Source: Nanobdella aerobiophila (GTDB taxonomy: Archaea > Nanobdellota > Nanobdellia > Nanobdellales > Nanobdellaceae). Taken from it: a stretch of 32,000 bases of DNA. Below, in pieces: positions 4,029 to 26,575 of this stretch. Location of the stretch: positions 30,001-62,000 of the forward strand of contig NZ_AP019769.1 in the NCBI RefSeq assembly GCF_023169545.1, written 5' to 3'. The notes beneath the pieces are model-generated. The model searched no databases. It worked only from the letters and a program-made list of their open reading frames with translations, and was not told the origin of the DNA. Numbering within the stretch: the first letter of the stretch is position 1; each line of letters starts with the position of its first letter. Made by a program: the position numbers and the translations under genes.

Positions 4029-4211
4029 ATGAGGAATGATCTTGCAATATCTACAATTATTATAATAATTATTGCTATAGTTGTTCTAATAATAGCGATA
4101 TTATTTGGATATAATATATATAAAGCTGGATATAGTTCTTCTAATACTAGCGCTAATTTTATAAATAGCTCATTAAATAATATAACCAATCAAAAGATTC
4201 CATTTCAATGA
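4029..4211 (+). CDS. 60-aa single-helix membrane peptide (pilin-like/Flp-like)
   Basis: MRNDLAISTIIIIIIAIVVLIIAILFG then a Ser/Asn tail with N-x-S/T sequons. ATGA overlap with the 790-aa ORF favours this strand over the antisense ORF 3944-4189. Confidence 0.45.
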   Translation: MRNDLAISTIIIIIIAIVVLIIAILFGYNIYKAGYSSSNTSANFINSSLNNITNQKIPFQ

Positions 4212-6580
4212 AAACGCAATTTGGTTCTATATTAGAATTTGTAGGATACTATCTAGTTATATTTATAATAATATTAGCTGGTATATTCTTTATATTAACT
4301 TATATATTTAAATTTAATTATAATATAAATCTAAATCCTTCGGTTCAGATATCTTTACAAAATCAAAATGCAAATAATAATGTAAAAACCAATAATTATA
4401 CATATAATGTTTTAGTATACGTTTATTATAATTACAATAATTATGTATATTTAACTCAAGGATTACCAGGAACTAACAATACATATAATTATAGTATAGT
4501 ACCATATATAGGCAATAGCTTAGCCCCAATAAACCCACAAATAGCATATAATAATATGACATCTACCTTACAATTTACATCTAATGCAAATGAAAATATT
4601 AATTTTTATATTAATTTAAGTAATCAGACATATACGGGTACTGAGGTGGATTATAATAATTATCAATGCCAAATATTACCTCCGAATGAACAAATCGGAT
4701 CCCCAAATCAAAATCCGATATTTTGTATAGAATGTACTGGAGGTAATAAATTACAATATTTTTATTTACAAAATCCTGAATATTTGAATGTAACTCCAGC
4801 AATTAGTTTATTAGATGGATATCCAAATGTAAATTATTATAATTATACTATAAATAATTTATATATAGAAAATATGACTGCAATTAGTTTAGAAAGTCAG
4901 GATACATATTATACATTATCTCCATTTCAAGATATATTAGTAGAAGTTGTACCACCATTTTCGAATTATATAAACAGTTATGATGGTATTAATGCAGATA
5001 ATGTATTATTCTTAATCTATTATAATAATCAATATTATGTATTGCCATCATATTATGCAGGAAATAATAATAATATATATTATTTCTTTGTAAATCTATT
5101 GAATTTTCCACAAGATATAAATAATAATGGCGGATGTAATTTCTTAACATTATATGTAGCATTTAGTAATCAGGATTTATTAACGATATTAAATGGAACT
5201 TTAGGAGGAGATCCATATGCATTAAATAATAATAATCCAGGAGAATATCTTATGTACGATAATGGATTAAATGTATTTCCTATATATGTAAATTTTTATA
5301 ATTATAATGGTCTTACGGAGGAAAGTATTATATCATGTAACAGTAATCTTTGCTTCCAACCTACAAAATATAATACTTTACCAACATATAATGTAGAAAA
5401 TATATATGCCAATAATACTTCAGGTTCTCCACTATTTTATTCAGAATCTGGACTGCAGATGTTAAATAATGGTGGAGGTGAAGGTTCTTATATTGCTGTT
5501 AACTCTACATTATTAGACAATTTTGATAATTTTATAAAAAATAATAATATAAATAATCAAAATTATGGAGACGGGATAAATACTTATATATATGTTGCTG
5601 GAGATCCTTGGGAGGACTCCCCCTCTACAGGTTTAAATCCAGAAGTTGCAGATGCAGTAGCATTTTCTATAACAAATCAAAATATATTCACTGGGAATTT
5701 AGATTCTATACTTCCGGTAGGTGGTAGTACTCCTGTACCAAATACTTCAACAACTGAAATATTTGAATATGGATGGGCTTGTACTTCGCCTGGTGCAGGA
5801 TGTTCTTCAGGATATTATGTAGGGATACCTATTAAATATTATTGTGGAGTATCGCATGGAAGTGGTGGATCTACCTGGAGTATTTTATTAAATATAAGTA
5901 CATCAGAGAGTTCGAATTGTGCTTCTAAAGTTAAAGAGTATTATTATGCAGGATCTGCAAACGGAGGAAGTAATTATTATTTTGGAGAAAATAATAATAT
6001 AGGATCTTCTAATAGTTATATACCATTTGCTCCAGAAGATCAACAGAAAAATTATAATTATGAACAATATGGGATATTATATACATATAATTGGTATTTA
6101 ACAAATCCTTCAAGTAATTCTCAATTAAATAATTATTTCTTAATGAATGGTAATATATATAATTATCCTTTGCCAAAGATAAATCAAAATACTCCTGAAC
6201 TTATACAACCAGAATCTCCGGGAGAAAACGCGGGTGTAGGACCTGCATTAGCTATTAGTTATTATAATTCATATCAGACTGCATTTGAAGCAGAGGACGA
6301 TATGCAATTATCTGAGTTCATAAACTATAATGGAGGTAAGGGTATATCAGGTATATTATGTAATTCTTTACCTAATGGTTTTATATCAGGAACATTCGGA
6401 TATATGGAATATTGTCAAGGAGTTTATAATCGTTATATAGACAACTTAGTTATAAATAATTTTGGAAATCAACCTTTTATATATTTTAGTGCAGGAGATG
6501 GAGGTGGAACATCTTATATATATTTGGATTGGTTAATATCATCATTCGGGGTACCTTATGTTGTATATACACCCTCCTGA
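4208..6580 (+). CDS. Large N-terminally anchored secreted protein, Asn/Tyr-rich, heavily sequon-bearing (putative surface glycoprotein)
   Basis: 790-aa uninterrupted ORF in a stop-rich AT genome. N-terminus MKTQFGSILEFVGYYLVIFIIILAGIFFIL. 12 Cys and many N-x-S/T sites. No recognisable enzymatic motif. Confidence 0.8.
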   Translation: MKTQFGSILEFVGYYLVIFIIILAGIFFILTYIFKFNYNINLNPSVQISLQNQNANNNVKTNNYTYNVLVYVYYNYNNYVYLTQGLPGTNNTYNYSIVPYIGNSLAPINPQIAYNNMTSTLQFTSNANENINFYINLSNQTYTGTEVDYNNYQCQILPPNEQIGSPNQNPIFCIECTGGNKLQYFYLQNPEYLNVTPAISLLDGYPNVNYYNYTINNLYIENMTAISLESQDTYYTLSPFQDILVEVVPPFSNYINSYDGINADNVLFLIYYNNQYYVLPSYYAGNNNNIYYFFVNLLNFPQDINNNGGCNFLTLYVAFSNQDLLTILNGTLGGDPYALNNNNPGEYLMYDNGLNVFPIYVNFYNYNGLTEESIISCNSNLCFQPTKYNTLPTYNVENIYANNTSGSPLFYSESGLQMLNNGGGEGSYIAVNSTLLDNFDNFIKNNNINNQNYGDGINTYIYVAGDPWEDSPSTGLNPEVADAVAFSITNQNIFTGNLDSILPVGGSTPVPNTSTTEIFEYGWACTSPGAGCSSGYYVGIPIKYYCGVSHGSGGSTWSILLNISTSESSNCASKVKEYYYAGSANGGSNYYFGENNNIGSSNSYIPFAPEDQQKNYNYEQYGILYTYNWYLTNPSSNSQLNNYFLMNGNIYNYPLPKINQNTPELIQPESPGENAGVGPALAISYYNSYQTAFEAEDDMQLSEFINYNGGKGISGILCNSLPNGFISGTFGYMEYCQGVYNRYIDNLVINNFGNQPFIYFSAGDGGGTSYIYLDWLISSFGVPYVVYTPS

Positions 6581-6616: not shown

Positions 6617-7546
6617 TTATAGATTTTCTTTTATTATTTCTCCTCCACCTCCATAGAAACCGATTGGTATTACAGTATTATTTAATGTAAATATTGGTCC
6701 CCCACCAACATCTGGATCGTATCCATTAATCATTTTCGTTATCCCCATTTCTGGATGTTGGTAATATATCTGATTTAGTTCTGTAGCATTTATATTTACA
6801 TTATTATTTATATTTCCTGTAGCTATATCATTTATAATATTATCTAAATTATGTTCATCCGTATAGAATAATCCGACGTATGGTCTTTCATTCGAATTTG
6901 AAAATAAGCTATCTATATTTAATACTGTACTTCCATTAATATTTTCTTCAGGTATTACAACTACACCATTTCTGCCTGTATCACCTGCAGCTATTATAAC
7001 AAATGGTTCTTGTGCATATGGTCCGGAAACTGATACACCATATGTTTTTTCTATATAATTTTGAACTACCGGGCTTGTCTCTGCATAATTTATATCATTT
7101 AATAATTCTTGAACTGGTCCAAATTTAAATAATACAGGTTGAGTAATCTCATGACCATCTTGATAATAAATTTCTGTTCCAGAATATATATTATTCTGAT
7201 CTGTTGGTTTTATATTATCAATAAATACATAATTTGTATCAATTGTTTGCTCTTGAGGATGTAATATTCCGCCGCCTATTAAATATAGAGCAGCTATCCC
7301 CGCACCTGCAGCTATGCCAGCACCAATGGCTATAAATTTTCCAGGCAACCCTTGTTTACCTTTATATCTATTATATCTAGAGAATGAATCATAAGTCCCT
7401 AATCCCAACCTTACAGGAGTAAAGGGAACTGCGTATAATATAGATCTTGGATTTTCCGTTATATAACCAAGAACTTCCTTTGCCTCCTTCATTTTTACCT
7501 TGATCTTACCTAAAAGATTATCAAGACTAGCTCTAGCATTTACCAT
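6617..7546 (-). CDS. Type II-oriented membrane protein with Gly/Ala-zipper transmembrane helix
   Basis: 309 aa. A ~70-aa charged N-terminal region, then KFIAIGAGIAAGAGIAALYLIGGGIL, then a low-charge extracytoplasmic domain. It is the only minus-strand gene inside the surface-protein block. Confidence 0.75.
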   Translation of the reverse strand: MVNARASLDNLLGKIKVKMKEAKEVLGYITENPRSILYAVPFTPVRLGLGTYDSFSRYNRYKGKQGLPGKFIAIGAGIAAGAGIAALYLIGGGILHPQEQTIDTNYVFIDNIKPTDQNNIYSGTEIYYQDGHEITQPVLFKFGPVQELLNDINYAETSPVVQNYIEKTYGVSVSGPYAQEPFVIIAAGDTGRNGVVVIPEENINGSTVLNIDSLFSNSNERPYVGLFYTDEHNLDNIINDIATGNINNNVNINATELNQIYYQHPEMGITKMINGYDPDVGGGPIFTLNNTVIPIGFYGGGGEIIKENL

Positions 7547-7639
7547 GATTTAATAGTTATAAAAAAAGTTTATAAATATTTCTACAAATCTTATATTTGC
7601 AGTATAAAAAATATAAATTATAAAAGATCTTATTCTTTC

Positions 7640-8776
7640 ATGAAAAAGGGAGTTAGCGATTCTGTTATAAGTTTAATAGTTGTAATAATTGTATTTATAT
7701 TTATATTGTTAATATTATTTAATTCTTTAAGAGCAGTTTCATATTCTGGTAGACCTCAAGCAAAATTTGCGTATGCACTTTCGGGGTCTGTTAGTTTTTT
7801 AGTAGACAAACCTTCTCAAGTTGTCAGTTCTATAGGTACAGACGGTCTTATAATTGCGGGAGGTATTATAGCAGCGGCTGCTATAGTTGGTGGAGCTATT
7901 GCAGCGCATAATGCAGAGGAAGATGAAAATTTATTTAATGTATTTTCAGCGGGTGCGGCAGGATCTATAAAAAGTGTTTTAGGTAATACAGCATTCGAGG
8001 CATTTACCGGAGCTTCAGCCGGATTATTAATTACTGGAGATGTTTTTAATAGTATAGCATCTAATATACAGCAACCAATATTATATTATTTAGCTCTTTT
8101 AGATGAACAATCTGTAAATTTAACTGAATTAAATTCACAAGATTATGTATCTATGTATCAAAATCTAAATTCTACATATGCAAATTATATAGAAAAGAAG
8201 TATTCATGTGAATCTCAACCAACAAGTACGCAATGCGAAAATCTATATCTGACATATAGGATTGCACAAGATCTATATTATACTTATGGAGAAACTCTTG
8301 GGCAATCTGTGGCAATAGCAGGCGCTCATAATGAATATTTTCTAGCATTTTTTAATTATAATGATACAGAAGATAAAAATCAAGCTAATATAACATTAAA
8401 TGAAGTATTATGTATGCTATATATGATGGATTATTATAATGTTAACCCATTTAATCAAATGTATGGAAGTCAGGATATAAACAATTTAGATCCAAATGAA
8501 AATACAGATCTGGCCTGTAATATCACAGCTACTGTTAATAATCAATTACAGTTTTCAGGTTCTGGTCTACCGCAAAATATACAAAGTATGGTTGCAGCAG
8601 ATTCCGCAACATTAGATACTTCAGATACTTCAAACGGCGGACAAATCTCTCTTATCAATTATCCAAATATTATTGTTCAACCGCAAGGATCTCTTACGAG
8701 CGGATATATAATGTTTACATATGATGGTGGTACACAGGCAATAATTATTTCTTCTTTATTATATACACAAAATTAA
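7640..8776 (+). CDS. Pilin-like protein with class III signal peptide
   Basis: 378 aa. MKKG|VSDSVISLIVVIIVFIFILLILF is a canonical archaeal prepilin-type signal. Second Ala/Gly-rich hydrophobic segment GLIIAGGIIAAAAIVGGAIAA. 4 Cys. Confidence 0.8.
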   Translation: MKKGVSDSVISLIVVIIVFIFILLILFNSLRAVSYSGRPQAKFAYALSGSVSFLVDKPSQVVSSIGTDGLIIAGGIIAAAAIVGGAIAAHNAEEDENLFNVFSAGAAGSIKSVLGNTAFEAFTGASAGLLITGDVFNSIASNIQQPILYYLALLDEQSVNLTELNSQDYVSMYQNLNSTYANYIEKKYSCESQPTSTQCENLYLTYRIAQDLYYTYGETLGQSVAIAGAHNEYFLAFFNYNDTEDKNQANITLNEVLCMLYMMDYYNVNPFNQMYGSQDINNLDPNENTDLACNITATVNNQLQFSGSGLPQNIQSMVAADSATLDTSDTSNGGQISLINYPNIIVQPQGSLTSGYIMFTYDGGTQAIIISSLLYTQN

Positions 8777-8810
8777 AAATTTTATATTTTAATAGGTTGT
8801 AAATATTCTT

Positions 8811-8945
8811 ATGGATACTGGAGAATTGCTACAAATAATATTAGCATTAATATTTATTATATTAATTCTTATACTTATATTTTTAATAATTGGGCCAAAG
8901 GTCGGATTAAATTTATCTGTTATTGCACAAAATGGCATACCATAA
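8811..8945 (+). CDS. 44-aa single-helix membrane peptide (not in supplied ORF track)
   Basis: Hand-translated as MDTGELLQIILALIFIILILILIFLIIGPKVGLNLSVIAQNGIP, ATG 8811 to TAA 8943-8945. Same strand as the operon and overlaps the next start by 14 nt. Confidence 0.4.
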   Translation: MDTGELLQIILALIFIILILILIFLIIGPKVGLNLSVIAQNGIP

Positions 8946-9117
8946 AGGACAAATAAGTACATTTTTAGTAGCAATAATAATATTTATAGTGGCATTGGTT
9001 GTATTAACAATATTAATGATATTTTATTTTAAAGGTGGAGTACATTTATTTAATAGCATAAATGAAACAAATGGAACAGTAATAGAAAATCAAATCCAAA
9101 ATAATAACCTACCATGA
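8932..9117 (+). CDS. Minimal pilin-like protein (61 aa) with class III signal peptide
   Basis: From ATG 8932: MAYHKG|QISTFLVAIIIFIVALVVL, a K-G then Q-I-S cleavage-type motif. The track start at 8923 is a TTG extension. The mature part is little more than the hydrophobic helix plus a short sequon-bearing tail. Confidence 0.6.
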   Translation: MAYHKGQISTFLVAIIIFIVALVVLTILMIFYFKGGVHLFNSINETNGTVIENQIQNNNLP

Positions 9118-9272
9118 GATTAGATGATTCTATAAACTTTCTAATATTCATAATAATTGCTATAGTTATAATAATAATAGTTATACTATTATATGTGTAT
9201 ATTGTTCATACTGGAATGAACGAAAATCTTACTAGGATAGGTTATAATGTATTGAATCAAACTGATTTATAA
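9114..9272 (+). CDS. 52-aa single-helix membrane peptide (not in supplied ORF track)
   Basis: Hand-translated as MRLDDSINFLIFIIIAIVIIIIVILLYVYIVHTGMNENLTRIGYNVLNQTDL. ATGA overlap with the preceding gene and TAATG overlap with the next. Confidence 0.45.
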   Translation: MRLDDSINFLIFIIIAIVIIIIVILLYVYIVHTGMNENLTRIGYNVLNQTDL

Positions 9273-10093
9273 TGAGATCTAATGATACTCTATTTAAGGT
9301 AATATTTGAACTAATATTATTAGTTATAGTTATAATATTAATTGCAGTTTTTATAGAAGCAATTATAGGTATCTCTCAGGGACAAAACATAAAATATGAG
9401 AATTATGCAAAACAAATAATATCAAGTATACAAAATCCAAATACACCACCTATATATATAGATGGATATAATCCCGACTATTTATTTGTCTTTTCTTCTG
9501 TAAATAATTATATATACCTATCATTATATAAATGTAGTTTTGGTATTGGTTCTGGAAATCCACAAGTATTATTATGGAATATTTCTCAATATATATTCTC
9601 TCCAGATTTATCAGGATGTTTTTTAATATATAAAGCTAATACAAGTTTAAATAGTATAGAGATAAATATTATAAATTCAACAGATGTAGCTGCAGGTTTA
9701 ATAACTATTGATAGTATGGATGCAGTTCCATATTATGGGGGGGTTAGTGCAGAAATCCAAAATACTAATCAAGAAATATATATAATCCCAGATGTAGTTA
9801 TTGATTGTACAGATCATGGATGTAGTATGACTAGTCCATATAGTCAATCATTATCTTGTTATATATCAAGTTCTTGTGTAGAAATAGGAGGTTTTCTTAA
9901 TCAGGTAGGACAAGCAAATTCATATTCTAGTTCTGCTATAAATATAGGATACATAAATAATATAAATGTAGGTAATAATCAATTTACTGTTCAGGAGCTT
10001 ACATTAAATCAATTAACCTTAAACTATATATTAAAGATAGAATATACCAGTGGTACGATCAGTTTCTATTATATACCACCAATATCTACTTGA
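9272..10093 (+). CDS. N-terminally anchored secreted protein (pilin-like N-terminus)
   Basis: 273 aa. MRSNDTLFKVIFELILLVIVIILIAVF. 6 Cys, clustered as IDCTDHGCSMTSPYSQSLSCYISSSC. Low charge. Confidence 0.75.
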   Translation: MRSNDTLFKVIFELILLVIVIILIAVFIEAIIGISQGQNIKYENYAKQIISSIQNPNTPPIYIDGYNPDYLFVFSSVNNYIYLSLYKCSFGIGSGNPQVLLWNISQYIFSPDLSGCFLIYKANTSLNSIEINIINSTDVAAGLITIDSMDAVPYYGGVSAEIQNTNQEIYIIPDVVIDCTDHGCSMTSPYSQSLSCYISSSCVEIGGFLNQVGQANSYSSSAINIGYINNINVGNNQFTVQELTLNQLTLNYILKIEYTSGTISFYYIPPIST

Positions 10094-10094
10094 T

Positions 10095-11243
10095 ATGGTA
10101 GAGGACATATTAGATGCTTTAGTAGCTAGCATATTTTTAATAATTGTAATATTTATAGGGGTTAATATACCATACTTAGCAGCTAAAATATTTGGAGCTA
10201 ATAATCCTTATGCTGTTTTAGAGACTGCAGGATTTATTACATATGCAACATCCATACCAGGGGGGATTCAAGGATTAATATATATTTCTAGCGGGCCATC
10301 CATAGGTTATGAATTTAGGATTGCTCCACCAATAAATACAGGTTGGGTATTCGGTCAATATAATAATAATGATTTTTTAGTTTCTATAGGTTATTGTGAA
10401 AATCAAAACCTATGGGATCAATTTGGTATGGATTTTTTTAATTCTGTATTGACTGCAATGTTTGCTCAAGTTCCTGCTGCTGATGAAGCAGAAATTGCTT
10501 TAGAAGGCGCAGAGACCTTGGTAGAAGAATCGCCATCAGTTTCTAGTCTAGTTCAAAGTTATTTAAAATCCAGTTCAAAATTATTTGCGAATAGTTTTGC
10601 TGGAAATGAAATATTTGGAACTGCGATAGGATTATATAGATATTTGCAGGATCAAAATTCTGGAGGAATTGGTACAGCACTATATTCATCAGCTATGACT
10701 ATATTACCAACTGCATTAGAGGGCGCTGCTGTAGGTACATTGGAAGTATTGGCTGATAATGCAATTATAGCTGCTACAGGTCCTATAGGTTATGGAATAT
10801 CTATAGGCGTAAATATGATAGTCAACTCAGCAATAACATTATATAATTATGAAAATATTGCTAATAATGATTATGCAAGGTGTTATTATAATGACCAGTT
10901 ATTAAGTAGCGGTCAATATTTTGTATATTATAATTTATTATCCTTACCAGTATTTTATAATCCAGAATTTTCATTAATAAATCAATGCTATTTAGATGCT
11001 AAAAATCCGGGAAATCAGGAAGCAATATATTATGAATATTTATGCAATGGATTTAATAGCAATCAACAAAATCAAACGATATATCAATCAGGATCTCAGT
11101 ATGGATACTACATATTTAAATTAGAATTGGGTGTGGAGTATCAGGGTTATTATTATTATCCGGCTTATTTATCCTTAGATAAGAATAATTTGGATGGTAA
11201 TCATGAAATAAATATAAGTATAATACCCAATAAAATATCATGA
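10095..11243 (+). CDS. N-terminally anchored protein with Ala/Gly-rich hydrophobic and acidic central region
   Basis: Start placed at ATG 10095, 1 nt after the preceding stop; the track's 10050 start lies inside the previous gene. MVEDILDALVASIFLIIVIFIGV. Central AADEAEIALEGAETLVEE and ALEGAAVGTLEVLADNAIIAATGPIGYGISIGV. Confidence 0.75.
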   Translation: MVEDILDALVASIFLIIVIFIGVNIPYLAAKIFGANNPYAVLETAGFITYATSIPGGIQGLIYISSGPSIGYEFRIAPPINTGWVFGQYNNNDFLVSIGYCENQNLWDQFGMDFFNSVLTAMFAQVPAADEAEIALEGAETLVEESPSVSSLVQSYLKSSSKLFANSFAGNEIFGTAIGLYRYLQDQNSGGIGTALYSSAMTILPTALEGAAVGTLEVLADNAIIAATGPIGYGISIGVNMIVNSAITLYNYENIANNDYARCYYNDQLLSSGQYFVYYNLLSLPVFYNPEFSLINQCYLDAKNPGNQEAIYYEYLCNGFNSNQQNQTIYQSGSQYGYYIFKLELGVEYQGYYYYPAYLSLDKNNLDGNHEINISIIPNKIS

Positions 11244-12259
11244 GATCATTTTCTTTAAAAGATATTGTAGAATATATCATTGGTGCAGTTATAATTATAG
11301 CTGCACTATTATTTATACTAATATATTATGCAATGAATTTAACAGAATCATTTTCACAACAGTCTTATCAGATATTTGTGAATACTTTATTATTAAATAG
11401 ATTGCAATATTGTTTATATGAGGCTACTGGAAATCCTTATTATCTATTCTATGCGCCAAATATTTCTGTATTATATCAATATGATAATCAGATAAGTCAA
11501 TGCTATACAGTACTACAAGGATCTTTTTTAGATTATGTTGCAGAATCTGGTAATTTAACTGCTTTAATTGATCTTAATAGTCAAGTAAAACAAGAAGTAG
11601 CATCCACGGAAAACAGTGTAACTGGGCCAGATTCCTATTTATTGGTCTCTCAGCAGGAATTTCAGCAGTTTTTACTATATTCTAATATAACTTATTTTGG
11701 AGAGCCTTTATATATTTATTATAATATAAATAATGTATCTGCAAGTAGATATTATTTTCCTCAACAATTATTTGACATTTCTACTTATAGATATATATCT
11801 TCAGAAGCTTATTCTGAGATTGATACATCAGCATCTCCTCTTATCTCTTCAATGTCAGATTCAATAATAAATAATTTCTTATATTCGGATATATTCCCAC
11901 CAAAGTTCTCTATTTCTTATAATTCAATACCAGAGAATACTTATAATGAAATAGTAAGTTATTTATCTCAAGCATCCAATAATGAAAGCCAGATAATATA
12001 TAATATAACAAGGTATAATAATACATTTATTGATTTGTATAAAACTTGCTCCCAATATCCGTATGGACTATTTATATATCCATTGAATAGTTATGAAGTT
12101 ACATCGCCAAATTATGATACAGGTAGCATGAGGATTGTAAAAATATATTTTTTAGGTCTTGGTGCAATTAATTATGGTATAATGGGTTGTAATTATACTG
12201 AAGATAATCCAAGTACAGGCCAAATAAATGCCTCTAGCTGTACTATAATTATTCAATGA
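11240..12259 (+). CDS. N-terminally anchored secreted protein (pilin-like N-terminus)
   Basis: 339 aa. MRSFSLKDIVEYIIGAVIIIAALLFILIYY. ATGA overlaps on both sides. I count only 5 Lys in 339 residues. Confidence 0.75.
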   Translation: MRSFSLKDIVEYIIGAVIIIAALLFILIYYAMNLTESFSQQSYQIFVNTLLLNRLQYCLYEATGNPYYLFYAPNISVLYQYDNQISQCYTVLQGSFLDYVAESGNLTALIDLNSQVKQEVASTENSVTGPDSYLLVSQQEFQQFLLYSNITYFGEPLYIYYNINNVSASRYYFPQQLFDISTYRYISSEAYSEIDTSASPLISSMSDSIINNFLYSDIFPPKFSISYNSIPENTYNEIVSYLSQASNNESQIIYNITRYNNTFIDLYKTCSQYPYGLFIYPLNSYEVTSPNYDTGSMRIVKIYFLGLGAINYGIMGCNYTEDNPSTGQINASSCTIIIQ

Positions 12260-12723
12260 AATTTCAAATAGGATTTTTTTTATCTATGCTATTTGTATCT
12301 ATGCTCTTAATATTTTTAGTATTGTATTTAATATATCAAGATACATTACAGCCAGCATCCTTAAATGGAATAGCAACATTACAATTACAAGGGGTAGAAT
12401 ATCAATCCTCAAATGGTTTTCTAGGATCTAATATTTATTTTGATGGAGTATATGTACCAGTAATAGATATATTGAATGGTTATAATATAAATAATAATGC
12501 GAATAGTTATATATATGATCAATTATATAATGATACAATAAATTATTTTCAAGATTCATCTACTTTATTAGCTTTTGATTTAAATAACAATACATTAGGA
12601 GTATGCTATAATATGGACTATGTAAATTATAATATATATATAAATGGTCAAACATATAATCTAGAAGTTTGCCCTCCAACATTATTGGCTGGATATTATT
12701 ATAATATATCTTGTGTACAATGA
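12256..12723 (+). CDS. N-terminally anchored small secreted protein
   Basis: 155 aa. MKFQIGFFLSMLFVSMLLIFLVLYLIY, the same MK-x-Q-x-G n-region as the 790-aa ORF at 4208. ATGA overlaps on both sides. Confidence 0.7.
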   Translation: MKFQIGFFLSMLFVSMLLIFLVLYLIYQDTLQPASLNGIATLQLQGVEYQSSNGFLGSNIYFDGVYVPVIDILNGYNINNNANSYIYDQLYNDTINYFQDSSTLLAFDLNNNTLGVCYNMDYVNYNIYINGQTYNLEVCPPTLLAGYYYNISCVQ

Positions 12724-14198
12724 TTAAATCTTCTTTAGCTTCATTGGTAATTATAATTGGAATAATAATATTGGTAGTATCTGCATTCTATTATTTGAAT
12801 ACAGAACAAACACTAGGATTCCAAAATATGAAATATTTATCCTTAGATTATATAGCTTATCAAAATGGTATATATACATCTTTTGTAGAAATACCTTATT
12901 TGATAAGATATGAGATAAATAATTATATATATTCTATAAGCATATTTTCTAATAATATATATACAAATTTTGATAATTATATATATAGTCGAAATTCTAT
13001 ATATTATAATACCTATTATGATGAATGCTTACCAAATGAAACTTATGCATATGCTTCTTCATCATATAATCCATCAGGATATAATTATCTAAATATTTCC
13101 TATGGTTTATGTTTACCATTATTGACAGTAATAAATATACAAGATAATATATTAGGAAATGAAATAGGTTATAGTATATTAAATGATATAGAAAGTACTG
13201 TAAATAATCAAAATTATATAAAATTATCAGGAGGTGATTATTCTAGTAATCAGATAACTTTAGATATAAATTTTGAATATAGTTATCAATCAATATTCCA
13301 GCATATATTTAATATGCAACTAAATTACTCTTTTATTCCTTATTATATATATTATAATTATATTTCTGGGTATATATATAATAGATCTTTATATAGGATA
13401 ACATATTTTATTCAAAATCCACAAATAGTCGGTAATTATAACGATTATAAAAGCATAGATAATGGAAATCTATTATTATATAGTATAAATTATAATAGTA
13501 ATTCATTGTACTTAGCTGATTTATATTATAATACTTCAAACATTGAGGATCTACAATTACCTGTTCTATGCCAAACAGTAGGTCAAAATGATAATGGAAA
13601 TTGTGTTGTAAACATGTATTATAGGAACCTATGTATAGACTCGGGACAAACAGAAACATTAGCAGAGTACTTAGGCGGAAATACAGTATCTTCATCTCAA
13701 ATATTTAGTGGATATTTTTACAATATAGTATCTACAAATTATATATATAATAATAATAGCATATTACCAGATCTAATTAGTTGCACAGACTATTTAAATG
13801 ACGTTTGTAATTATAATCTATTTAATAATTATACTGTATTTACAGATGGAAATTTCCCAATATTAGTAAATACGACATTAAATGCAGTATATGATAATAT
13901 ATCATGTTCTGTATCTAGTGTTTCTGTTGATATTCCATTTGGATCTGTTAAGGAATGTCTTAAATATATATCTGGAGTAGAAGGTGCAGTTTCTCATTTA
14001 AATTCTCTTGGTATAAAATGCAGTGTAGATTCTGGTTGCGGAACAGGTACTGTAAGAGTAAGTTGTAGTAATTATCCATATATAACATATAATGGAGAAT
14101 TTTCAGTTAATTATGAAAATCTATTTACATTATTTAATATAAATGAAACTATATGCTCTAATAATAATATTATAAATTTTTGTAATGGTTTATCATGA
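12720..14198 (+). CDS. N-terminally anchored secreted protein with Cys-rich C-terminal domain
   Basis: Start placed at ATG 12720 (ATGA overlap); the track start at 12711 is TTG. MIKSSLASLVIIIGIIILVVSAFYY. 14 Cys, 12 of them in the last ~210 aa. Confidence 0.75.
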   Translation: MIKSSLASLVIIIGIIILVVSAFYYLNTEQTLGFQNMKYLSLDYIAYQNGIYTSFVEIPYLIRYEINNYIYSISIFSNNIYTNFDNYIYSRNSIYYNTYYDECLPNETYAYASSSYNPSGYNYLNISYGLCLPLLTVINIQDNILGNEIGYSILNDIESTVNNQNYIKLSGGDYSSNQITLDINFEYSYQSIFQHIFNMQLNYSFIPYYIYYNYISGYIYNRSLYRITYFIQNPQIVGNYNDYKSIDNGNLLLYSINYNSNSLYLADLYYNTSNIEDLQLPVLCQTVGQNDNGNCVVNMYYRNLCIDSGQTETLAEYLGGNTVSSSQIFSGYFYNIVSTNYIYNNNSILPDLISCTDYLNDVCNYNLFNNYTVFTDGNFPILVNTTLNAVYDNISCSVSSVSVDIPFGSVKECLKYISGVEGAVSHLNSLGIKCSVDSGCGTGTVRVSCSNYPYITYNGEFSVNYENLFTLFNINETICSNNNIINFCNGLS

Positions 14199-14771: not shown

Positions 14772-15230
14772 ATGGATAATGAAAAGATAATATTAAATAT
14801 ATTGTTCATAATATTTATTGTACCTGCATTAGCATTAATATATTATGCATATTCTAATTATTTTAAAGAATCAAGAACAGTTAATCCAGAAAATCCATAT
14901 GGTCTATATATATCAAATTTTATTGTAAATAATAGTACAATAGATATTTCTGTATATAATCCGTCGAATAATAGTATAAGTATATATTTTACTTACTTGG
15001 CATTGAAAAATTCTTATCAATCTTCATCCATTATTACATCATTTTCAGGATATATTTATACCATTAACCCAGATAGTTCTATAGAATTGTCTTATAATTA
15101 TTTAGATGATCAAGATACAAAGGCGGTAATATTACAATGGGAAAAATTAGGCGGATATATATATACTACACTATATTATAGTAATATAAATGATTCAATA
15201 AATGGAATAATAAATTATGAAAAAACTTAA
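14772..15230 (+). CDS. N-terminally anchored small secreted protein
   Basis: 152 aa. MDNEKIILNILFIIFIVPALALIYYAY followed by an Asn/Ser/Tyr-rich, sequon-bearing domain. Confidence 0.6.
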   Translation: MDNEKIILNILFIIFIVPALALIYYAYSNYFKESRTVNPENPYGLYISNFIVNNSTIDISVYNPSNNSISIYFTYLALKNSYQSSSIITSFSGYIYTINPDSSIELSYNYLDDQDTKAVILQWEKLGGYIYTTLYYSNINDSINGIINYEKT

Positions 15231-18884: not shown

Positions 18885-21468
18885 TCTTGAGAAATTATAT
18901 CCAAAAAAAGCTTTAGAATCTTTGGATCTGTATAGGAAGCAATGCAAAATATGTAATAGATTTTTTTGGACAAAAGATAAGAATAGAGAAGTATGTGGTG
19001 ATCACGAAAATTATGGTTTTATAAAAAATCCTTTAGGTACAAAGTTATCATATAATGAAGTTTATGATAATTTTGCAAAATATATGAATTCTAGAGGTTA
19101 TATAAGTATAAATAGATATCCTGTAGTGGCTAGATGGAGGGATGATATAGATTTTGTAATTGCTTCCATTGCAGATTTTCAACCATGGGTAGTGGAAGGG
19201 TACACCGATCCTCCATCCAAAAAACTAACTGTACCTCAATTTTGTCTAAGATTCAATGATATAGATAATGTTGGATTAACAGGCAGGCATTATACAGGTT
19301 TCGTTATGATTGGTCAGCATGCATTTATGAAACCTGAAGAATATAATAAAGACCAATATTTTCTAGATCTATATTATTGGTTTGAAGAAAATAAATTTCC
19401 GATGGAGGAGTTTTTATTTCATGAAGATAAATGGGAAGGTGGAGGAAATGGGGGTACATCAATAGAATTTTTTATAAGAGGATTAGAAGTAGCTAATCAG
19501 GTTTATATGCAATATAAGATAATAGATAATCAATGGGTAGAATTGGATAAATTAAAGGTTTTAGATATGGGTATGGGTCAGGAGAGGATTGCATGGATAA
19601 CCAATGGAACACCTACATCTTATGATATTGTCTTCCCAAATACAGTAAAATTTTTGCTAAATAATATTAATTATGATATAGATTATGATCTATTTAATAA
19701 AATTTCTATGTATTCTTCTTTATTTGACTTTGAAAAATATGATATAAATGATTTTGAAAAATATTTAAGGGAAAAGGGAATTTATGATAATAAATTATTG
19801 GAAATTATGCATGCTATATATTTAATCTCTGATCATATTAGAACATTATATATAGCAATATCTGATGGAGCTTTACCATCCAATATGGGAGGTAATTATA
19901 ATTTAAGGTTAATTAGTAGGAGAATGTTTTATTTTATTGATAAGTATTTTGGAGAAGATTCTTATTCATTTATAAAAAAATTATTAAATTATATATCATT
20001 AGATTGGAGGGAGAAGGTAGATATAAATGAAATATATAATATATTAATATATGAATATGAGAAATATAAAGATATAAAGAAAAATGCTCAAAAATTATTA
20101 GATAAAAACCTGGATACTAGGAAAATATTCGAACTATATACGTCTTCGGGGATATCTCTAGAGATAATGAAAGATATAAATCCTAATATTAATATAAATA
20201 AAGAAGAATTCAGTAGGTTATTAAGCCAGCATAAAAATATAAGTAAAAAGGAGAATAAGAAAGAAGAATTTTATATAGATATAAATTATCCAGAGACATA
20301 TAAATCATTTTATGATTCATGGAAGAAATATTATGAAATATCTAAATTTTATGGGAAGATTGATTATAAGAATTCAATATATTATATATTTGATAGAACT
20401 GTGTTTTATCCAACAAAAGGAGGACAAATACATGATACAGGATATATATTCGATCTGAATAATATAAAAAAATATTCAAAAGATGTTCTGGATAATTATA
20501 ATTTTCCAGATTATGTAAAGGATGAATTAGTTAAATATATGACTGGTAATTTAAAAGAAGATTTTGAAAAATATTTCGCAAGAGTTGTCGATGTAATAGA
20601 GTATAAAAAAATAATATTACATAAAGTAGATAAGGATATTGAAATCTCAGGTGAAATATTGCAAATTATAGATAAAGGTAGGAGATATAGAATATCTAGG
20701 CATCATACAGCAACCCACTTATTAACCTCTGTATTGAGAAATATTTATGGTAATCATATATGGCAAGCAGGTGCAGAAAAAGATGAATATGAAGGTAGAC
20801 TAGATATTACTCATTATAAGGTACCAAGCTATGAAGAAATAAAATTGATAGAAAAAAATGCCAATAATATAATATTGGAAGGTAGAAAAATAAATAAATT
20901 CTATTTAAAGAGAAATGAAGCTGAAAAATTATATGGATTTACAATATATCAAGGAGGATTTATACCAGAAACAAATTTAAGAATAGTTAATATAGAAAAT
21001 ACAGATGTAGAAGCATGTTCAGGAACTCATTTAGATAATACATTAGAAATTGGGTTAATAAAAATAATATCTGTTGAGAAGATAGCTGATGGAATGATTA
21101 GATTCAGGTTTATTGCTGGAGATAGGATAATAGAAGAATATGAAAATATGGAAGAAAGATTGAATAATATAAGGAATAAATATGGTATCGATATAAATAA
21201 TTTGAATAATTATATAGAAAAAATAAATAAAGATAGGGAAGAGAATAGTAAGAAGATAAATAGTTTATTGGAAGAATATATAAGAAATAATATAAAAGAT
21301 GGGAGAATATATATGGAAACCTCCTTAAAAATATCAGATATTATTAAATATGTACTAAGGTATAAAGATATTATAAAAGATATAGAGATAAAATGTAAAG
21401 ATGGTATTATTAGTTCTAAAGGTGGAGATAAGAAGATTGATAAATTTTATATAAAAAACTATGAATAG
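18874..21468 (+). CDS. alaS: Alanyl-tRNA synthetase
   Basis: 864 aa, GTG start. N-terminal Zn-ribbon-like CKICNRFFWT...CGD. Catalytic-core FCLRFNDIDNVGLTGRHYTGFVMIGQHAF. Editing-domain HHTATHLL and CSGTH motifs. Unsplit gene. Confidence 0.92.
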   Translation: MQSDLEKLYPKKALESLDLYRKQCKICNRFFWTKDKNREVCGDHENYGFIKNPLGTKLSYNEVYDNFAKYMNSRGYISINRYPVVARWRDDIDFVIASIADFQPWVVEGYTDPPSKKLTVPQFCLRFNDIDNVGLTGRHYTGFVMIGQHAFMKPEEYNKDQYFLDLYYWFEENKFPMEEFLFHEDKWEGGGNGGTSIEFFIRGLEVANQVYMQYKIIDNQWVELDKLKVLDMGMGQERIAWITNGTPTSYDIVFPNTVKFLLNNINYDIDYDLFNKISMYSSLFDFEKYDINDFEKYLREKGIYDNKLLEIMHAIYLISDHIRTLYIAISDGALPSNMGGNYNLRLISRRMFYFIDKYFGEDSYSFIKKLLNYISLDWREKVDINEIYNILIYEYEKYKDIKKNAQKLLDKNLDTRKIFELYTSSGISLEIMKDINPNININKEEFSRLLSQHKNISKKENKKEEFYIDINYPETYKSFYDSWKKYYEISKFYGKIDYKNSIYYIFDRTVFYPTKGGQIHDTGYIFDLNNIKKYSKDVLDNYNFPDYVKDELVKYMTGNLKEDFEKYFARVVDVIEYKKIILHKVDKDIEISGEILQIIDKGRRYRISRHHTATHLLTSVLRNIYGNHIWQAGAEKDEYEGRLDITHYKVPSYEEIKLIEKNANNIILEGRKINKFYLKRNEAEKLYGFTIYQGGFIPETNLRIVNIENTDVEACSGTHLDNTLEIGLIKIISVEKIADGMIRFRFIAGDRIIEEYENMEERLNNIRNKYGIDINNLNNYIEKINKDREENSKKINSLLEEYIRNNIKDGRIYMETSLKISDIIKYVLRYKDIIKDIEIKCKDGIISSKGGDKKIDKFYIKNYE

Positions 21469-22871
21469 TCATTAGTTATTAGATCTTCTATAAATTTATA
21501 CCAGATGTTTTTATTATTTAATTTATTATAATAATCTATTGAAAATATTAATAATAATATTAAGAAAGATAAACTGGAAAATATTATATTGTTTATAAAC
21601 AATGGTGCCATGTCAATAAATGTATATATTGATAATATTATTATAGATAAAAAGTTTTTGATATCTAATCTTGTGAACTGTCTATCATAAGAGTATCCTT
21701 TGTATTGTGGATTTAATTTTCCAGAATAGTACCAAGAAGGTATATTTATAGATATTGGTAATAATATTATTGAATATATAGAATATATATAGTAAATATT
21801 ATTTTTTAGTATAAATAATATGAAAAATGATATAATAAATGGTAATAATATCTTGTAAGAATTGTTTAATCTGTAGTTCATCTTTTTTCTAATATAATTC
21901 ATAAAATAATAATTTCCAGCATTTACCCATACTCTTTCAAAGCCAATGGATAGCTCTAGACCTACTGCAGAACTATATAATAATAAAAAGATAATATAAA
22001 TTGAAAATATATTTTTTATATAAAAAAATATAAATATTAAAATAGAGATAATGGAAGAAAATATAATTAAATATTTTAACAAAGAGTTCGATATATCTTT
22101 TATAGGATCTTTAGTTCTAAATATAGATCTATTTTCTATAAAATTTATATCATCATTGTATATAGAATATGGATCTGTATAAAACTTATAGAAATCTTTT
22201 CCAGATATTAAATATATTATTATTAAATATATTGATAATATTGGTGTAAAGTATATTTTGGATAATAATATATTTATTTCAGGATAATAGAATATATTTA
22301 GAAAGATTAATAATATAGGGAAGATAGAATATATAGTCTTTTTTATTATATTAGATGGTAAATATACTATAAGAGATATTATATATGAATATATTAAAGA
22401 ATTTAATATAGTAATTAATATTATTATGGTGTTTAGTTGATGGAATAAATATAATTGATATATATATGAGAAAAAAAATGGTAATATTATAAAATATATA
22501 AATATTAAGAATGATAGACTCTTAAGTAATATATATCTATCTATCTTAAGATCAGATGATAATATAAAATCAATTTCTGTTTTTGTATATACGATATTGC
22601 CATATAGATTTATCTTTTTATTTCCAGAATATATGTTTATTATTATAAAGAAAATATTTGTTAATATTAATATAAAAGATATCCATAATAATGCTCCAAT
22701 ACTAGAAGAAATATATAGAAATGGAAATATATTTTTTGGAATTATTTTATATAAATTTAGAAAATATATAGAAATTAATATAGGAGAATAAATGAGAATG
22801 AAATATATCAGCATATATAATAATATTTGACTTTTGGTATACATATCCTTTATTATAAATTTCAATATCAT
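21459..22871 (-). CDS. Polytopic membrane protein, putative ABC-2-type permease
   Basis: 470 aa, extremely hydrophobic with 10 or more predicted helices. 4-nt overlap with the upstream ABC ATPase gene. Confidence 0.6.
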   Translation of the reverse strand: MILKFIIKDMYTKSQILLYMLIYFILIYSPILISIYFLNLYKIIPKNIFPFLYISSSIGALLWISFILILTNIFFIIINIYSGNKKINLYGNIVYTKTEIDFILSSDLKIDRYILLKSLSFLIFIYFIILPFFFSYIYQLYLFHQLNTIIILITILNSLIYSYIISLIVYLPSNIIKKTIYSIFPILLIFLNIFYYPEINILLSKIYFTPILSIYLIIIYLISGKDFYKFYTDPYSIYNDDINFIENRSIFRTKDPIKDISNSLLKYLIIFSSIISILIFIFFYIKNIFSIYIIFLLLYSSAVGLELSIGFERVWVNAGNYYFMNYIRKKMNYRLNNSYKILLPFIISFFILFILKNNIYYIYSIYSIILLPISINIPSWYYSGKLNPQYKGYSYDRQFTRLDIKNFLSIIILSIYTFIDMAPLFINNIIFSSLSFLILLLIFSIDYYNKLNNKNIWYKFIEDLITNDYS

Positions 22872-23554
22872 CTTAATAATTTTATTATATTATCTTCTAA
22901 ATTATCTTTAATCTTTTCTATATTATCATTAAATATTATTTTACCTTTATTTATTAATATTATTCTATTAGCTATTTTTTCTGCTAATGATACTATGTGG
23001 GTAGAAATTATCTTTAGATTATTTCTTTCCTTTAATAAATTAATCGTTTTATATTGTGTTTCTAGATCTAGATAATTTAATGGTTCATCTAATAATAATA
23101 TTTCTGTATCTAATATTAATACCATAGATAATGATAATTTTTGTTTATTTCCTCTAGATAAGTTTATTGCTCTGTAATTTTTATATTTATCTAGATCAAA
23201 GAAATTTAAATAATAATCAATTTTATTATATAAATTATCTATACTTCTTAATAATCCTATATACTCTAGATTTTCTTTTACAGATAAATTGATGAACGGT
23301 ATTGGTTCTTCAGGTAAATATCCAATATACTTCTTAGCTCCTTCAGGATTTTTTAATAAATCTATATTTTTTATATATATGTTTCCAGAATCTGGTTTTA
23401 ATAAACCTGCTAATATCTTTATTGTAGTGCTTTTCCCTGCACCATTTGGACCAATTAAAAATACATTTTCTTTTTTATCTATTTCAAAAGATATATTATC
23501 GAGAGCCTTTATATTTTCATAGCTTTTTGATATATTCTCTACTTTTATCATCAT
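22868..23554 (-). CDS. ABC transporter ATP-binding protein
   Basis: 228 aa. Walker A GPNGAGKSTT, signature LSRGNKQKLSL, Walker B LLLDEP. Confidence 0.9.
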   Translation of the reverse strand: MMIKVENISKSYENIKALDNISFEIDKKENVFLIGPNGAGKSTTIKILAGLLKPDSGNIYIKNIDLLKNPEGAKKYIGYLPEEPIPFINLSVKENLEYIGLLRSIDNLYNKIDYYLNFFDLDKYKNYRAINLSRGNKQKLSLSMVLILDTEILLLDEPLNYLDLETQYKTINLLKERNNLKIISTHIVSLAEKIANRIILINKGKIIFNDNIEKIKDNLEDNIIKLLR

Positions 23555-23564: not shown

Positions 23565-23984
23565 TTATTGATCTATTGATATATTTAATTTTTTATATAT
23601 AAATTCTCTAACCTTTTCAGCAATATCTATAGCTTCTTTAGCATCTTCTTCAGTAACATTTTCTATAGATTTAGGATCATATCTAGATTTTATGGAATAT
23701 TTTGATAATTCTTCTATCATTTTTACTCCTGTAGATTTTTCTAATGAATTGAAGCTTTTGTCTATGTTTTTGCATTCATCTATTAATATCCTTATATCAT
23801 GAGTTCTATGTTTATATATATCAAAATAATTTTTGTATACTAAAAATGCTTTCAAATACTTTTCTACAGATTGTTGAGATAAAAAACATGCAATTCTATA
23901 ATGAGAGAGTTTATATATATCTTTTGCAGTTTTTAAATCGTCATCAGCTAATTTTAACCAATCTATTATATTTTCATCAATCAT
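23565..23984 (-). CDS. HEPN-domain protein (putative toxin), unit 1, last gene of array
   Basis: 139 aa. QQSVEKYLKAFL, THDIRIL and SRYD motifs of the MNT-associated HEPN family. The C-terminal EEDAKEAIDIAEKVREFIYKKLNI is shared with the other three, but the last 4 aa are SIDQ rather than DNNI. Confidence 0.8.
   Translation of the reverse strand: MIDENIIDWLKLADDDLKTAKDIYKLSHYRIACFLSQQSVEKYLKAFLVYKNYFDIYKHRTHDIRILIDECKNIDKSFNSLEKSTGVKMIEELSKYSIKSRYDPKSIENVTEEDAKEAIDIAEKVREFIYKKLNISIDQ
23581..23651. repeat. Partial copy (HEPN-tail part only) of the 215-bp junction repeat
   Basis: atatttaattttttatatataaattctctaaccttttcagcaatatctatagcttctttagcatcttcttca is identical to the corresponding part of the full copies. 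Confidence 0.85.
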
Positions 23985-24307
23985 AATAGTATCTTTCCTT
24001 CATTTTTAGCCCAATAATATACAAATAATTTACTTTTAGATCTTTTATCAAATTCTTGATTATCTACTATTAGTAAATCGACGGATTTATTCAATGAATT
24101 TACTAAATAATAGTGTATATCACACCATAAATTATCATATAGATCTTTATCCAATTTATCTTCAGTTATAATTAATATATCATAATCAGAATCTTCTCTA
24201 TAATCTCCTCTAGCTCTAGATCCAAATAATATAATTTTATCTATTTTAATATTATATTCATTTGCAACATCATATATTACTTTCTTAATTATTTCCAAAT
24301 CATTCAT
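23981..24307 (-). CDS. Minimal nucleotidyltransferase (MNT, putative antitoxin), unit 1
   Basis: 108 aa. Pol-beta NTase motif LFGSRARGDYREDSDYDI, third acidic residue in SVDLLIVD. ATGA overlaps on both sides. Confidence 0.85.
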   Translation of the reverse strand: MNDLEIIKKVIYDVANEYNIKIDKIILFGSRARGDYREDSDYDILIITEDKLDKDLYDNLWCDIHYYLVNSLNKSVDLLIVDNQEFDKRSKSKLFVYYWAKNEGKILL

Positions 24308-24391
24308 ATATTATTATCTATATTTAATTTTTTATATATAAATTCTCTAACCTTTTCAGCAATATCTATAGCTTCTTTAGCATCTTCTTCA
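24177..24391. repeat. 215-bp junction repeat, full copy 1
   Basis: By-eye comparison shows nucleotide identity with 24913-25127 and 25619-25833. Spans the first 44 MNT codons, the ATGA overlap and the last 28 HEPN codons. Confidence 0.9.
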
Positions 24392-24720
24392 TTAACATTT
24401 TTTATAAATTCTATATCATATCTAGATAAGACAGAATAATCTGAAACTATTTGGAACTTTTCAATTCCTATCAATTCTCTCAATATTATAAAATTATTAT
24501 CTATTTTTATACATTCATCTAATAATTTATTTATATTATGAATCTTATGTTTTTTAGGATTAAAGATATTATTTTCTATTAGAAATGCTTTTAAATATAA
24601 TTCTATAGCTTGTTGACTCCAAAAACATGAACTAGAGTACAAAGAATTTTGAAAACTTTTTTTAGATGTATCGAGATCTATATCAGCAATTTCAATGTAT
24701 TCTTTAGTATCTTCTTTCAC
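24304..24720 (-). CDS. HEPN-domain protein (putative toxin), unit 2
   Basis: QQAIELYLKAFL, KIHNINKL, SRYD. Start placed at GTG 24720 (GTGA overlap with the MNT stop). This aligns VKEDTKEYIEIADIDL with the N-termini of units 1 and 3. The track's ATG at 24750 would add MGGKGRYINK from inside the MNT gene. Confidence 0.75.
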   Translation of the reverse strand: MKEDTKEYIEIADIDLDTSKKSFQNSLYSSSCFWSQQAIELYLKAFLIENNIFNPKKHKIHNINKLLDECIKIDNNFIILRELIGIEKFQIVSDYSVLSRYDIEFIKNVNEEDAKEAIDIAEKVREFIYKKLNIDNNI

Positions 24721-25043: not shown

Positions 25044-25127
25044 ATATTATTATCTATATTTAATTTTTTATATATAAATTCTCTAACCTTTTCAGCAATA
25101 TCTATAGCTTCTTTAGCATCTTCTTCA
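24913..25127. repeat. 215-bp junction repeat, full copy 2
   Basis: Identical to the copy at 24177-24391. Identity with that copy extends a further 39 nt (24874-24912 = 24138-24176). Confidence 0.9.
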
Positions 25128-26491: not shown

Positions 26492-26575
26492 GAGGGGTTG
26501 AATATATACTTTCTTATAAAAATAAAGTAAAGCAAAATTATATATTATATAACTTTTAAACTAAATAATATATAT

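Follow-up and report, generated by a model that had tools for sequence, protein, structure and literature searches.

A conserved nine-gene operon of helix-anchored extracellular proteins in the Nanobdellales, possibly a divergent type IV filament-like module

The described systems closest to the locus analysed here, a nine-gene operon at positions 7640–14198 (+ strand) of a 32-kb stretch of the Nanobdella aerobiophila genome (the window, by which we mean the whole stretch), are archaeal type IV pili, bacterial minor-pilin and pseudopilin operons, the helix-only pilins of Flp/Tad systems, the proteins PilN/PilO, GspL/M and ArlF/ArlG, and the attachment organelle of the Nanobdellales. Archaeal type IV pilins (Aap and Ups of Sulfolobales, Epd of Methanococcus) have a short charged leader, a ~20-residue helix and glycosylatable extracellular domains, and their genes can sit apart from the ATPase and platform genes; Sulfolobales pilin signals read KG↓LS (arrows stand for actual or presumed cleavage sites throughout). 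Bacterial minor-pilin and pseudopilin operons (FimU-PilVWX-PilY1, GspHIJK, ComGC-GG) are co-translated, and their products share only the N-terminal hydrophobic helix and have dissimilar globular parts. Flp/Tad prepilins are ~50–70 amino acids (aa) long and carry a G/XXXXEY processing motif. PilN/PilO, GspL/M and ArlF/ArlG combine a short cytoplasmic N-terminus, one transmembrane (TM) helix and an extracytoplasmic domain, and are operon-encoded beside their own ATPase and platform. N. aerobiophila, a very small parasitic archaeon available in culture, is thermoacidophilic and lives as an ectosymbiont of Metallosphaera sedula. In this organism, in YN1 (PMC11104419, PMC11420986) and in YN4 (10.64898/2026.06.04.730037), cryo-electron tomography has revealed an attachment organelle with a cone, a portal, a barrier and a 7–8 nm tube or filament. 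It is built from repetitive densities and a thin filament, and its molecular identity is unknown according to the authors (PMC11104419).

Our analysis supports the operon products as extracellular, N-terminally helix-anchored proteins (the polytopic first product excepted) encoded in one translationally coupled operon. Our preferred reading, tentative and short of probable, is that they are subunits of one Nanobdellales-specific extracellular assembly, a divergent type IV filament-like (pilin- or pseudopilus-like) module. A first-pass annotation made from the DNA letters had delimited nine open reading frames (ORFs) of 378, 44, 61, 52, 273, 382, 339, 155 and 492 aa, all of which were confirmed and are labelled g1 to g9 from 5' to 3', with g0 and g10 for similar upstream and downstream neighbours. 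Ortholog alignments back the starts at 8932, 10095 and 12720 over longer mechanical ORFs. Coordinates and sequence also bear out the gene junctions as first described, in order a 34-nt spacer, a 14-nt overlap, an ATGA overlap, a TAATG overlap, a 1-nt gap and three further ATGA overlaps; such translational coupling argues for a fixed stoichiometry of the products. The polar N-terminal stretch (3–10 residues) followed by a hydrophobic helix (20–28 residues; Kyte-Doolittle maxima of 2.8–4.0 over 19 residues) is present in all nine products, and the Cys counts of 4, 6, 4 and 14 given for the products starting at 7640, 9272, 10095 and 12720 are correct. The design of N-terminally anchored secreted proteins thus stood for the nine N-terminal helices and fell for g1, which has further TM segments.

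A composition count agreed with the description of the ectodomains as rich in Asn, Tyr, Ser and Thr and near-devoid of Lys, and extended this to Arg. Behind the helix, the operon proteins contain 0–3.4% Lys+Arg, 9–17% Asn, 7–13% Tyr and 11–22% Ser+Thr, whereas Lys+Arg makes up 10.8–23.1% of 14 cytoplasmic proteins of the window. Because Lys and Arg are so scarce relative to these neighbours, we read the ectodomains as extracellular, disulfide-bonded and exposed to hot acid. A claimed density of N-x-S/T sequons did not survive comparison with shuffled sequences of the same composition: counts equalled expectation (g9, 10 vs 10.9±2.6) with one modest excess (g7, 9 vs 5.0±1.9), so that the apparent enrichment is put down to composition.

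The 382-aa product g6 (10095–11243) is 100% identical to MJ1_0047 of N. aerobiophila (MJ1; 668,961-bp contig), and the operon takes up ~1% of this 669-kb genome. Upstream in the window lie housekeeping genes for Nop5, fibrillarin, RpoF and L21e, and downstream those for TYW3, DnaG, class V fructose-bisphosphatase (FBPase), P1 and alanyl-tRNA synthetase (AlaRS). The AT-rich divergent intergenic region directly before g1 (7547–7639, + strand) has TATA-like boxes 14–30 nt before the first ATG and is presumably the operon promoter, with a predicted leaderless mRNA; at the window's G+C content of ~25%, TATA-like strings are common by chance.

Conservation of the locus was followed by a synteny scan with one genome per species. 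All nine genes occur in the same order in 8 of 8 Nanopusillus/Nanobsidianus loci, corresponding to the eight genomes of this group in which g6 was found, followed by TYW3 on the opposite strand, a 152–157 aa helix-anchored protein, DnaG and FBPase. The same operon and context recur in Candidatus Nanoclepta minutus and four uncultured lineages of greater divergence, giving 13 loci besides that of N. aerobiophila, and the housekeeping setting is constant in every lineage (arginyl-tRNA synthetase or L21e, then beyond the operon TYW3, DnaG, FBPase, P1 and AlaRS). Sequences diverge strongly within this fixed frame. In the eight loci, identity to the window genes is 82–84% for DnaG, 70–72% for TYW3, 52–73% for the three small peptides g2, g3 and g4 and 26–47% for the six large operon proteins; in Nanoclepta-like and divergent lineages g6 is at the detection limit, with identities down to ~20% despite the kept gene order. 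In Nanoclepta-like loci, 2–4 extra overlapping ORFs with class III-like N-termini (MKKS↓VEIA.., MKKRS↓IAIE.., MRG↓TSIP..) lie directly upstream (L010, 6688–7483; L011, 4792–5661; L012, 2301–2970; L013, 2111–3985), making an 11–13-gene cluster; they are mostly 32–137 aa long, with one of 500 aa in L013.

The profile search for the operon in other archaea that the first-pass annotation had proposed found it across the Nanobdellales. A g6 profile built from 41 sequences matched 14 of 1.84 billion representative proteins at E < 0.001, the named ones being from Nanobdella, YN1 (YN1_3890), Nanopusillus, Nanobsidianus, Nanoclepta and Nanopusillaceae metagenome-assembled genomes and the others unnamed metagenome proteins; this search returned no Nanoarchaeum equitans protein and no named match beyond the Nanobdellales. 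The g8 family is equally narrow, with 43 relatives found from the ortholog alignment and only itself from a single-sequence search. That all products are orphans, and that g1 weakly matches a PHROG membrane protein (E = 0.0022, TM region only), might suggest an integrated virus or mobile element, or ORFs that are artefacts of AT-rich DNA. We consider this extremely improbable: the housekeeping context is the same in every lineage, 2.9 million viral contigs held no relatives of the operon proteins, and the ORFs are conserved as proteins, down to Cys, Pro and Gly positions that do not vary, so that synteny and conservation effectively refute it. Viral or mobile-element origin was ruled out on the fixed context and the lack of viral-contig relatives.

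The same conservation bears on whether the nine products belong together at all. They might be independent surface glycoproteins and membrane peptides that are merely co-transcribed, a surface protein island with no common assembly. About one quarter of the proteins listed for Nanopusillus acidilobi have a single predicted TM segment (a rough count from its gene table), so that runs of single-TM genes, such as Nps_00470–00525, are not unique to the operon; the ectodomains lack mutual similarity, and the large proteins, at 26–38% identity, evolve fast compared with the adjacent DnaG at 82–84%. Order, overlaps and content are nevertheless strictly kept where identity falls to its lowest values, three helix-only peptides of 44–61 aa, conserved better than the large proteins, would make little sense as independent surface proteins, and the coupling of translation speaks for a fixed stoichiometry. 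Independent proteins thus fit poorly with the strictly kept gene order, with the overlaps and with three such small conserved peptides, and we regard this explanation as decidedly unlikely.

The operon genes, all on the + strand, differ in what follows the shared N-terminal helix. g1 (7640–8776; MJ1_0042 by position) begins with the leader MKKG↓VS and a TM helix and ends in an extracellular domain with 4 Cys, and its orthologs in the eight loci are 34–38% identical. A second TM segment (residues ~65–88, Kyte-Doolittle 2.1–2.4) is conserved in three lineages, a third hydrophobic segment is weaker, and a conserved loop, SY[SA]GRP.AKF.YA, lies between the first and second TM segments; the ortholog has three TM domains in the N. 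acidilobi gene table (PMC4935971, Supplementary Data 1). From these features g1 is probably a polytopic membrane base and not a pilin. Three helix-only peptides follow. g2 (8811–8945; MDTGELLQIIL...) has an N-terminus that resembles that of g6 (hhalign probability 42%), is 67–69% identical in the four of the eight Nanopusillus/Nanobsidianus loci where blastp recovered it, and has counterparts of 43–44 aa in Nanoclepta-like lineages. In g3 (8932–9117) the leader MAYHKG↓QI is followed by a single helix and by a polar tail of ~20 aa in which N-x-T sequons are conserved; with orthologs 64–73% identical, it is the best conserved operon member and also the best class III-like candidate. g4 (9114–9272) has one helix and a short tail with sequons. 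In Nanoclepta-like lineages the g3 and g4 counterparts share one 108–114 aa reading frame with a Lys/Arg-rich linker between them (L010, 8849–9178; L011, 6927–7253; L012, 4292–4630; L013, 5544–5888), which is either a two-helix fusion with a different topology or a g4 starting at an internal ATG.

The remaining five genes encode larger products. g5 (9272–10093) combines the N-terminal helix with a 6-Cys ectodomain. The leader of g6 is acidic (MVEDILDA↓LV), its middle part helical and rich in Gly and Ala, and its C-terminus beta-rich; the first ~80 residues are near-invariant across 41 sequences. g7 (11240–12259) starts with MRS↓FSLKDIVEY and has a helix and a 5-Cys ectodomain. The pilin-sized g8 (12256–12723; MJ1_0049) has a conserved Cys pair near its C-terminus and an invariant [G/S]-F-F-L at the helix start in Nanobdella, Nanopusillus and Nanoclepta-type members. 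g9 (12720–14198), with the largest ectodomain of the operon, has 8 of its 14 Cys invariant across lineages and an Ala directly before the helix that is conserved in all of them; at its 3' end the gene shares 29 nt with the convergent TYW3.

Cleavage of archaeal class III (prepilin-like) signals is decided by positions -2, -1 and +1, a basic residue at -2 being archaeal-specific (PMC3387779), and PibD processes leaders down to 3 residues (PMC10117864). Two signals had been called textbook examples, MKKG↓VS of g1 and HKG↓QI of g3. Both are present, and the Gly at -1 that made them textbook cases is specific to Nanobdella. The g1 leader reads MKS↓IS in all Nanopusillus/Nanobsidianus and KRS↓VS, KRA↓IS or KRS↓IS in Nanoclepta-like lineages; that of g3 elsewhere reads KKT↓QV, ERA↓IV, DRA↓IV, ERT↓IV or DKA↓LV, and the analogy to EppA-processed pilins drawn from the Gln at +1 of g3 fails on the conservation of the -1 residue. 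The g7 leaders (MRS↓FS, MRS↓LS, MRA↓LS, MRG↓IS) have an invariant Arg followed by S/A/G at position 3. What is kept across lineages in g1, g3 and g7 is a basic residue at -2 and G/S/A/T at -1, right at the helix start, and the extra upstream peptides of Nanoclepta-like lineages have the same pattern (KKS↓VE, KKA↓IA, RS↓VE, RG↓TS). Orthologs were also scored with a FlaFind-like pattern. It fitted 9/10 orthologs of g6 (through Asp-Ala), 1/10 of g1, 2/10 each of g3 and g5 and 3/10 of g7; with Ser allowed at -1, all ten g1 and all ten g7 orthologs fitted, and g2, g4, g9, g10 and g0 do not fit. On these grounds three of the families, and possibly a fourth, resemble class III substrates cut by a peptidase that is relaxed about the residue at -1.

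In 9 of the 11 families, conservation is higher over the N-terminal 35 residues than over the remainder (e.g., 0.58 vs 0.33 in g6 and 0.74 vs 0.14 in g2), which argues that these helices make specific contacts and are not passive anchors; this fits a filament core and an intramembrane complex equally well. Paralogy was tested by aligning every pair of families with hhalign, both in full and after removal of the N-terminal 40 residues. No ectodomain paralogy was found (probabilities <2%), the helices of g2/g4, g3/g4 and g2/g6 being weakly alike, so that by profile alignment the operon is a set of nine unrelated families and not of duplicated pilins. Searches of all operon products against Pfam, NCBIfam and PHROG gave nothing that reached threshold, nor did Pfam searches with the Nanoclepta orthologs, and sequence-profile searches of the PDB with g5, g6, g8 and g9 had no matches; within these searches, no S-layer, solute-binding or other known family accounts for any product. 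The sole match to a pilin model was that of g5 to Pfam Pilin_N (PF07790; E = 0.019, 16.3 bits, below the 25.2 cut-off), which was not reproduced in the Nanoclepta ortholog. Pilin-type models gave no match for the other products, for seven Nanoclepta orthologs of operon genes and g10 (Pfam), or in NCBIfam. The earlier picture of one minimal pilin accompanied by minor pilins is not supported, given the polytopic g1, the dissimilar ectodomains and the missing pilin-model matches.

In the assembly that we tentatively prefer, the products would be inserted with the N-terminus inside and the C-terminus outside, and the structure would be held in the membrane, or above it, by their N-terminal hydrophobic helices. 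For g1, g3 and g7 at least, the leader would be removed by a class III-type peptidase that tolerates several residues at -1. A helical core might consist of the short conserved peptides (g3, and possibly g2 and g4), with g5–g9 supplying large variable ectodomains as minor pilins or tip proteins do, and with the polytopic g1 as membrane base. One of the unlinked type IV pilus ATPase/TadC pairs, whose nanoarchaeal pilins have never been identified, would serve the assembly, and the assembled product may serve host-cell contact.

Candidates for such machinery exist in relatives. The N. acidilobi gene table lists FlaI and FlaH and, far from the operon, two TadC genes side by side (Nps_01915/01920) and a pair of T2SS-F and ATPase genes (Nps_02245/02250) (PMC4935971). 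Since this organism has an orthologous operon and encodes ATPase and TadC elsewhere, unlinked machinery is not puzzling in itself. A 2016 survey assigned three clade-2 and one clade-4 secretion ATPases to Nst1 besides the archaellum ATPase, and it failed to find the pilins that go with some of the secretion ATPases of nanoarchaea (PMC4858521). For YN4, a 2026 preprint cites YN4_047 as related to type IV pili. Nanobdella has ArlBHIJ and swims, and nanoarchaea without an annotated peptidase make archaella. The TadC genes Nps_01915/01920 are flanked by the single-TM uncharacterised Nps_01900, 01910 and 01925 (PMC4935971, Supplementary Data 1).

Several observations nevertheless weigh against a filament-like module. 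No FlaI/PilB, FlaJ/PilC or A24 peptidase domain was found among ORFs of at least 90 aa in the window, as the first-pass annotation had stated, and an ATPase, platform or peptidase was likewise missing near the operon in all 14 loci (±10 kb in relatives). An operon variant beside an ATPase or TadC gene was looked for in the most divergent lineages, and the context was always housekeeping. The N. acidilobi gene table lists no prepilin peptidase (PMC4935971), and two nanoarchaea were noted as exceptions without a recognisable one (PMC4858521). Nps_01900, 01910 and 01925 are alternative pilin candidates for the TadC system, and the operon orthologs Nps_00220–00255 are 'uncharacterized', have no arCOG and were undetected by tryptic proteomics (PMC4935971); that non-detection is unsurprising because Lys and Arg are nearly lacking. 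On the side of the signals, the other six families have no consistent Lys/Arg plus small-residue motif (g6 fits through the acidic Asp-Ala), the leaders of g2 and g6 are acidic, methanococcal signals are no longer cleaved once the -1 Gly is changed, and the boundary residues S, T, G, D and N are also ordinary helix N-caps. No Nanobdella or Nanoclepta ortholog reaches threshold with pilin, Flp, TadE or archaellin models. AlphaFold2 models of g6 (mean pLDDT, predicted local distance difference test, 49.9; 41 sequences) and g8 (54.8; 40 sequences) are confident for the N-terminal helix alone and too poor to use, and Foldseek of the poor g8 model against the PDB returned noise, with 0.81 as the lowest E-value and no pilin among the hits. 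The polytopic nature of g1 is a further point of this kind.

Much of this would be expected of a static envelope complex, in which uncleaved signal-anchored (type II) proteins and small membrane subunits pack through their helices without ATPase-driven extrusion; it could form the cone, portal or barrier of the attachment organelle, or a scaffold that anchors the S-layer. Besides the lack of linked assembly genes in any locus and of an annotated prepilin peptidase in relatives, the Gly/Ala-rich helical segments of g1 and g6 are unlike pilins, as is the polytopic g1, the nine ectodomains are mutually unrelated, and the conserved TM helices suit specific intramembrane packing equally well. The operon's range, including Nanobdella MJ1 and YN1, is also compatible with the lineages in which the cone was imaged. 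The boundary Lys/Arg plus G/S/A/T in g1, g3 and g7 and the [G/S]FFL of g8 lack an obvious rationale in mere anchors, however, the three small peptides have short glycosylatable extracellular tails, and no result puts any product at the organelle. We regard a static complex as somewhat doubtful but nearly as likely as the filament-like module, which stays the preferred reading. If pilin-like, the operon is a strongly divergent variant; if not, it is a new envelope assembly.

Set against the described systems, the operon has most in common with archaeal type IV pili: the short charged leader and ~20-residue helix, glycosylatable extracellular domains, Lys/Arg at -2, a small residue at -1 and [IVL]-S at +1/+2 in g1 and g7, as in Sulfolobales signals, and a position apart from ATPase and platform genes. 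It differs in having mostly Ser or Thr, not Gly or Ala, at -1, in matching no pilin model, in comprising nine unrelated families and not paralogues, with sizes up to 492 aa, one polytopic member and some acidic leaders, and in that no peptidase has been identified in its lineage and ATPase and platform genes are unlinked in every locus. The locus is also distinct from archaellum, Ups, Aap and bindosome loci, in agreement with the first-pass annotation. With bacterial minor-pilin and pseudopilin operons the likeness would be architectural only, including the implied fixed stoichiometry, since the G↓F-x-x-x-E signature and homology are missing. g2, g3 and g4 are similarly small to Flp/Tad pilins, with one helix and a short tail, but the G/XXXXEY motif is absent from them and their orthologs, there is no Flp_Fap or TadE match, and no TadV, TadA or TadBC gene is adjacent. 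The topology and operon encoding of PilN/PilO, GspL/M and ArlF/ArlG are likewise shared, without sequence or model similarity and without a neighbouring ATPase and platform. With the attachment organelle, the operon shares a compatible range (it occurs in MJ1 and YN1 and was not detected outside the order) and an extracellular or envelope-embedded nature of the parts. No result places operon products there, and the distribution equally fits any order-specific trait.

The operon-like architecture reaches past the nine genes. Upstream, g0 (4208–6580, + strand; 790 aa) starts with a helix, contains 12 Cys, is rich in Asn (16%) and Tyr (11%) but not in Lys+Arg (1.5%), and matches no family; it is the upstream neighbour in Nanopusillus/Nanobsidianus too (35–38% identity in four loci), is missing from Nanoclepta-like loci and is a possible accessory outside the coupled operon. 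Downstream, g10 (14772–15230, + strand; 152 aa), with an N-terminal helix and a Ser/Thr/Tyr-rich ectodomain, lies between TYW3 and DnaG at the same position in every lineage examined; its identity of 55–60% in Nanopusillus/Nanobsidianus is above that of most operon proteins. A 309-aa ORF divergent from the operon (6617–7546, - strand) has a ~65-residue polar N-terminus and a Gly/Ala-rich TM segment at residues ~69–96, and is not similar to the N. acidilobi ORFs of 313 and 413 aa at the same position (apparently Nps_00210/Nps_00215, arCOG10265/arCOG10353).

Elsewhere in the window, four consecutive pairs of HEPN and minimal nucleotidyltransferase (MNT) genes in overlapping frames (23565–26458, - strand; 139+108, 148+108, 132+104 and 139+108 aa) form a tandem toxin-antitoxin-like array in this 669-kb genome. 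A 470-aa ORF without Pfam match (21459–22871, - strand) overlaps the start of an ABC-transporter ATPase gene (22868–23554) and is probably the cognate ABC permease, missed by current models. ARAGORN predicted an 86-nt tRNA-Leu (anticodon TAG) at 26575–26660 (+ strand), and the Rfam tRNA model at its gathering threshold found only a tRNA-Arg at 27927–28001.

Searches of the literature agree with the view that this system is undescribed: MJ1_0042, MJ1_0046 to MJ1_0050 and the searched Nst1, Nps and YN1 ortholog tags are unmentioned in the publications covered, and a preprint on Nanobdella surface architecture treats other proteins and discusses no MJ1_003x–005x gene. Because they are undescribed surface proteins found only in hot-spring nanoarchaea, the operon products are candidate host-contact parts; the link to the attachment organelle is circumstantial. 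The strongest form of this idea, that the nine genes are the structural genes of the organelle, with peptides and larger subunits building the portal and the 7–8 nm tube or filament into the host and the Gly/Ala-rich helices of g1 and g6 engaging or inserting into the host membrane, seems to us rather unlikely. If true, these cells would penetrate their host with an apparatus that is related to type IV filaments by descent or by convergence and is made of entirely new protein families. If the products form only an envelope scaffold, they would still be nine new order-specific protein families, of local interest. Few DPANN archaea have been brought into culture, and Nanobdella, YN1, YN4, Nanopusillus and Nanoclepta belong to these. 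Because the operon is kept in fixed order across the Nanobdellales and encodes only extracellular helix-anchored orphans, it offers a short, concrete list of candidates for the components of the attachment organelle or for the missing nanoarchaeal pilins.

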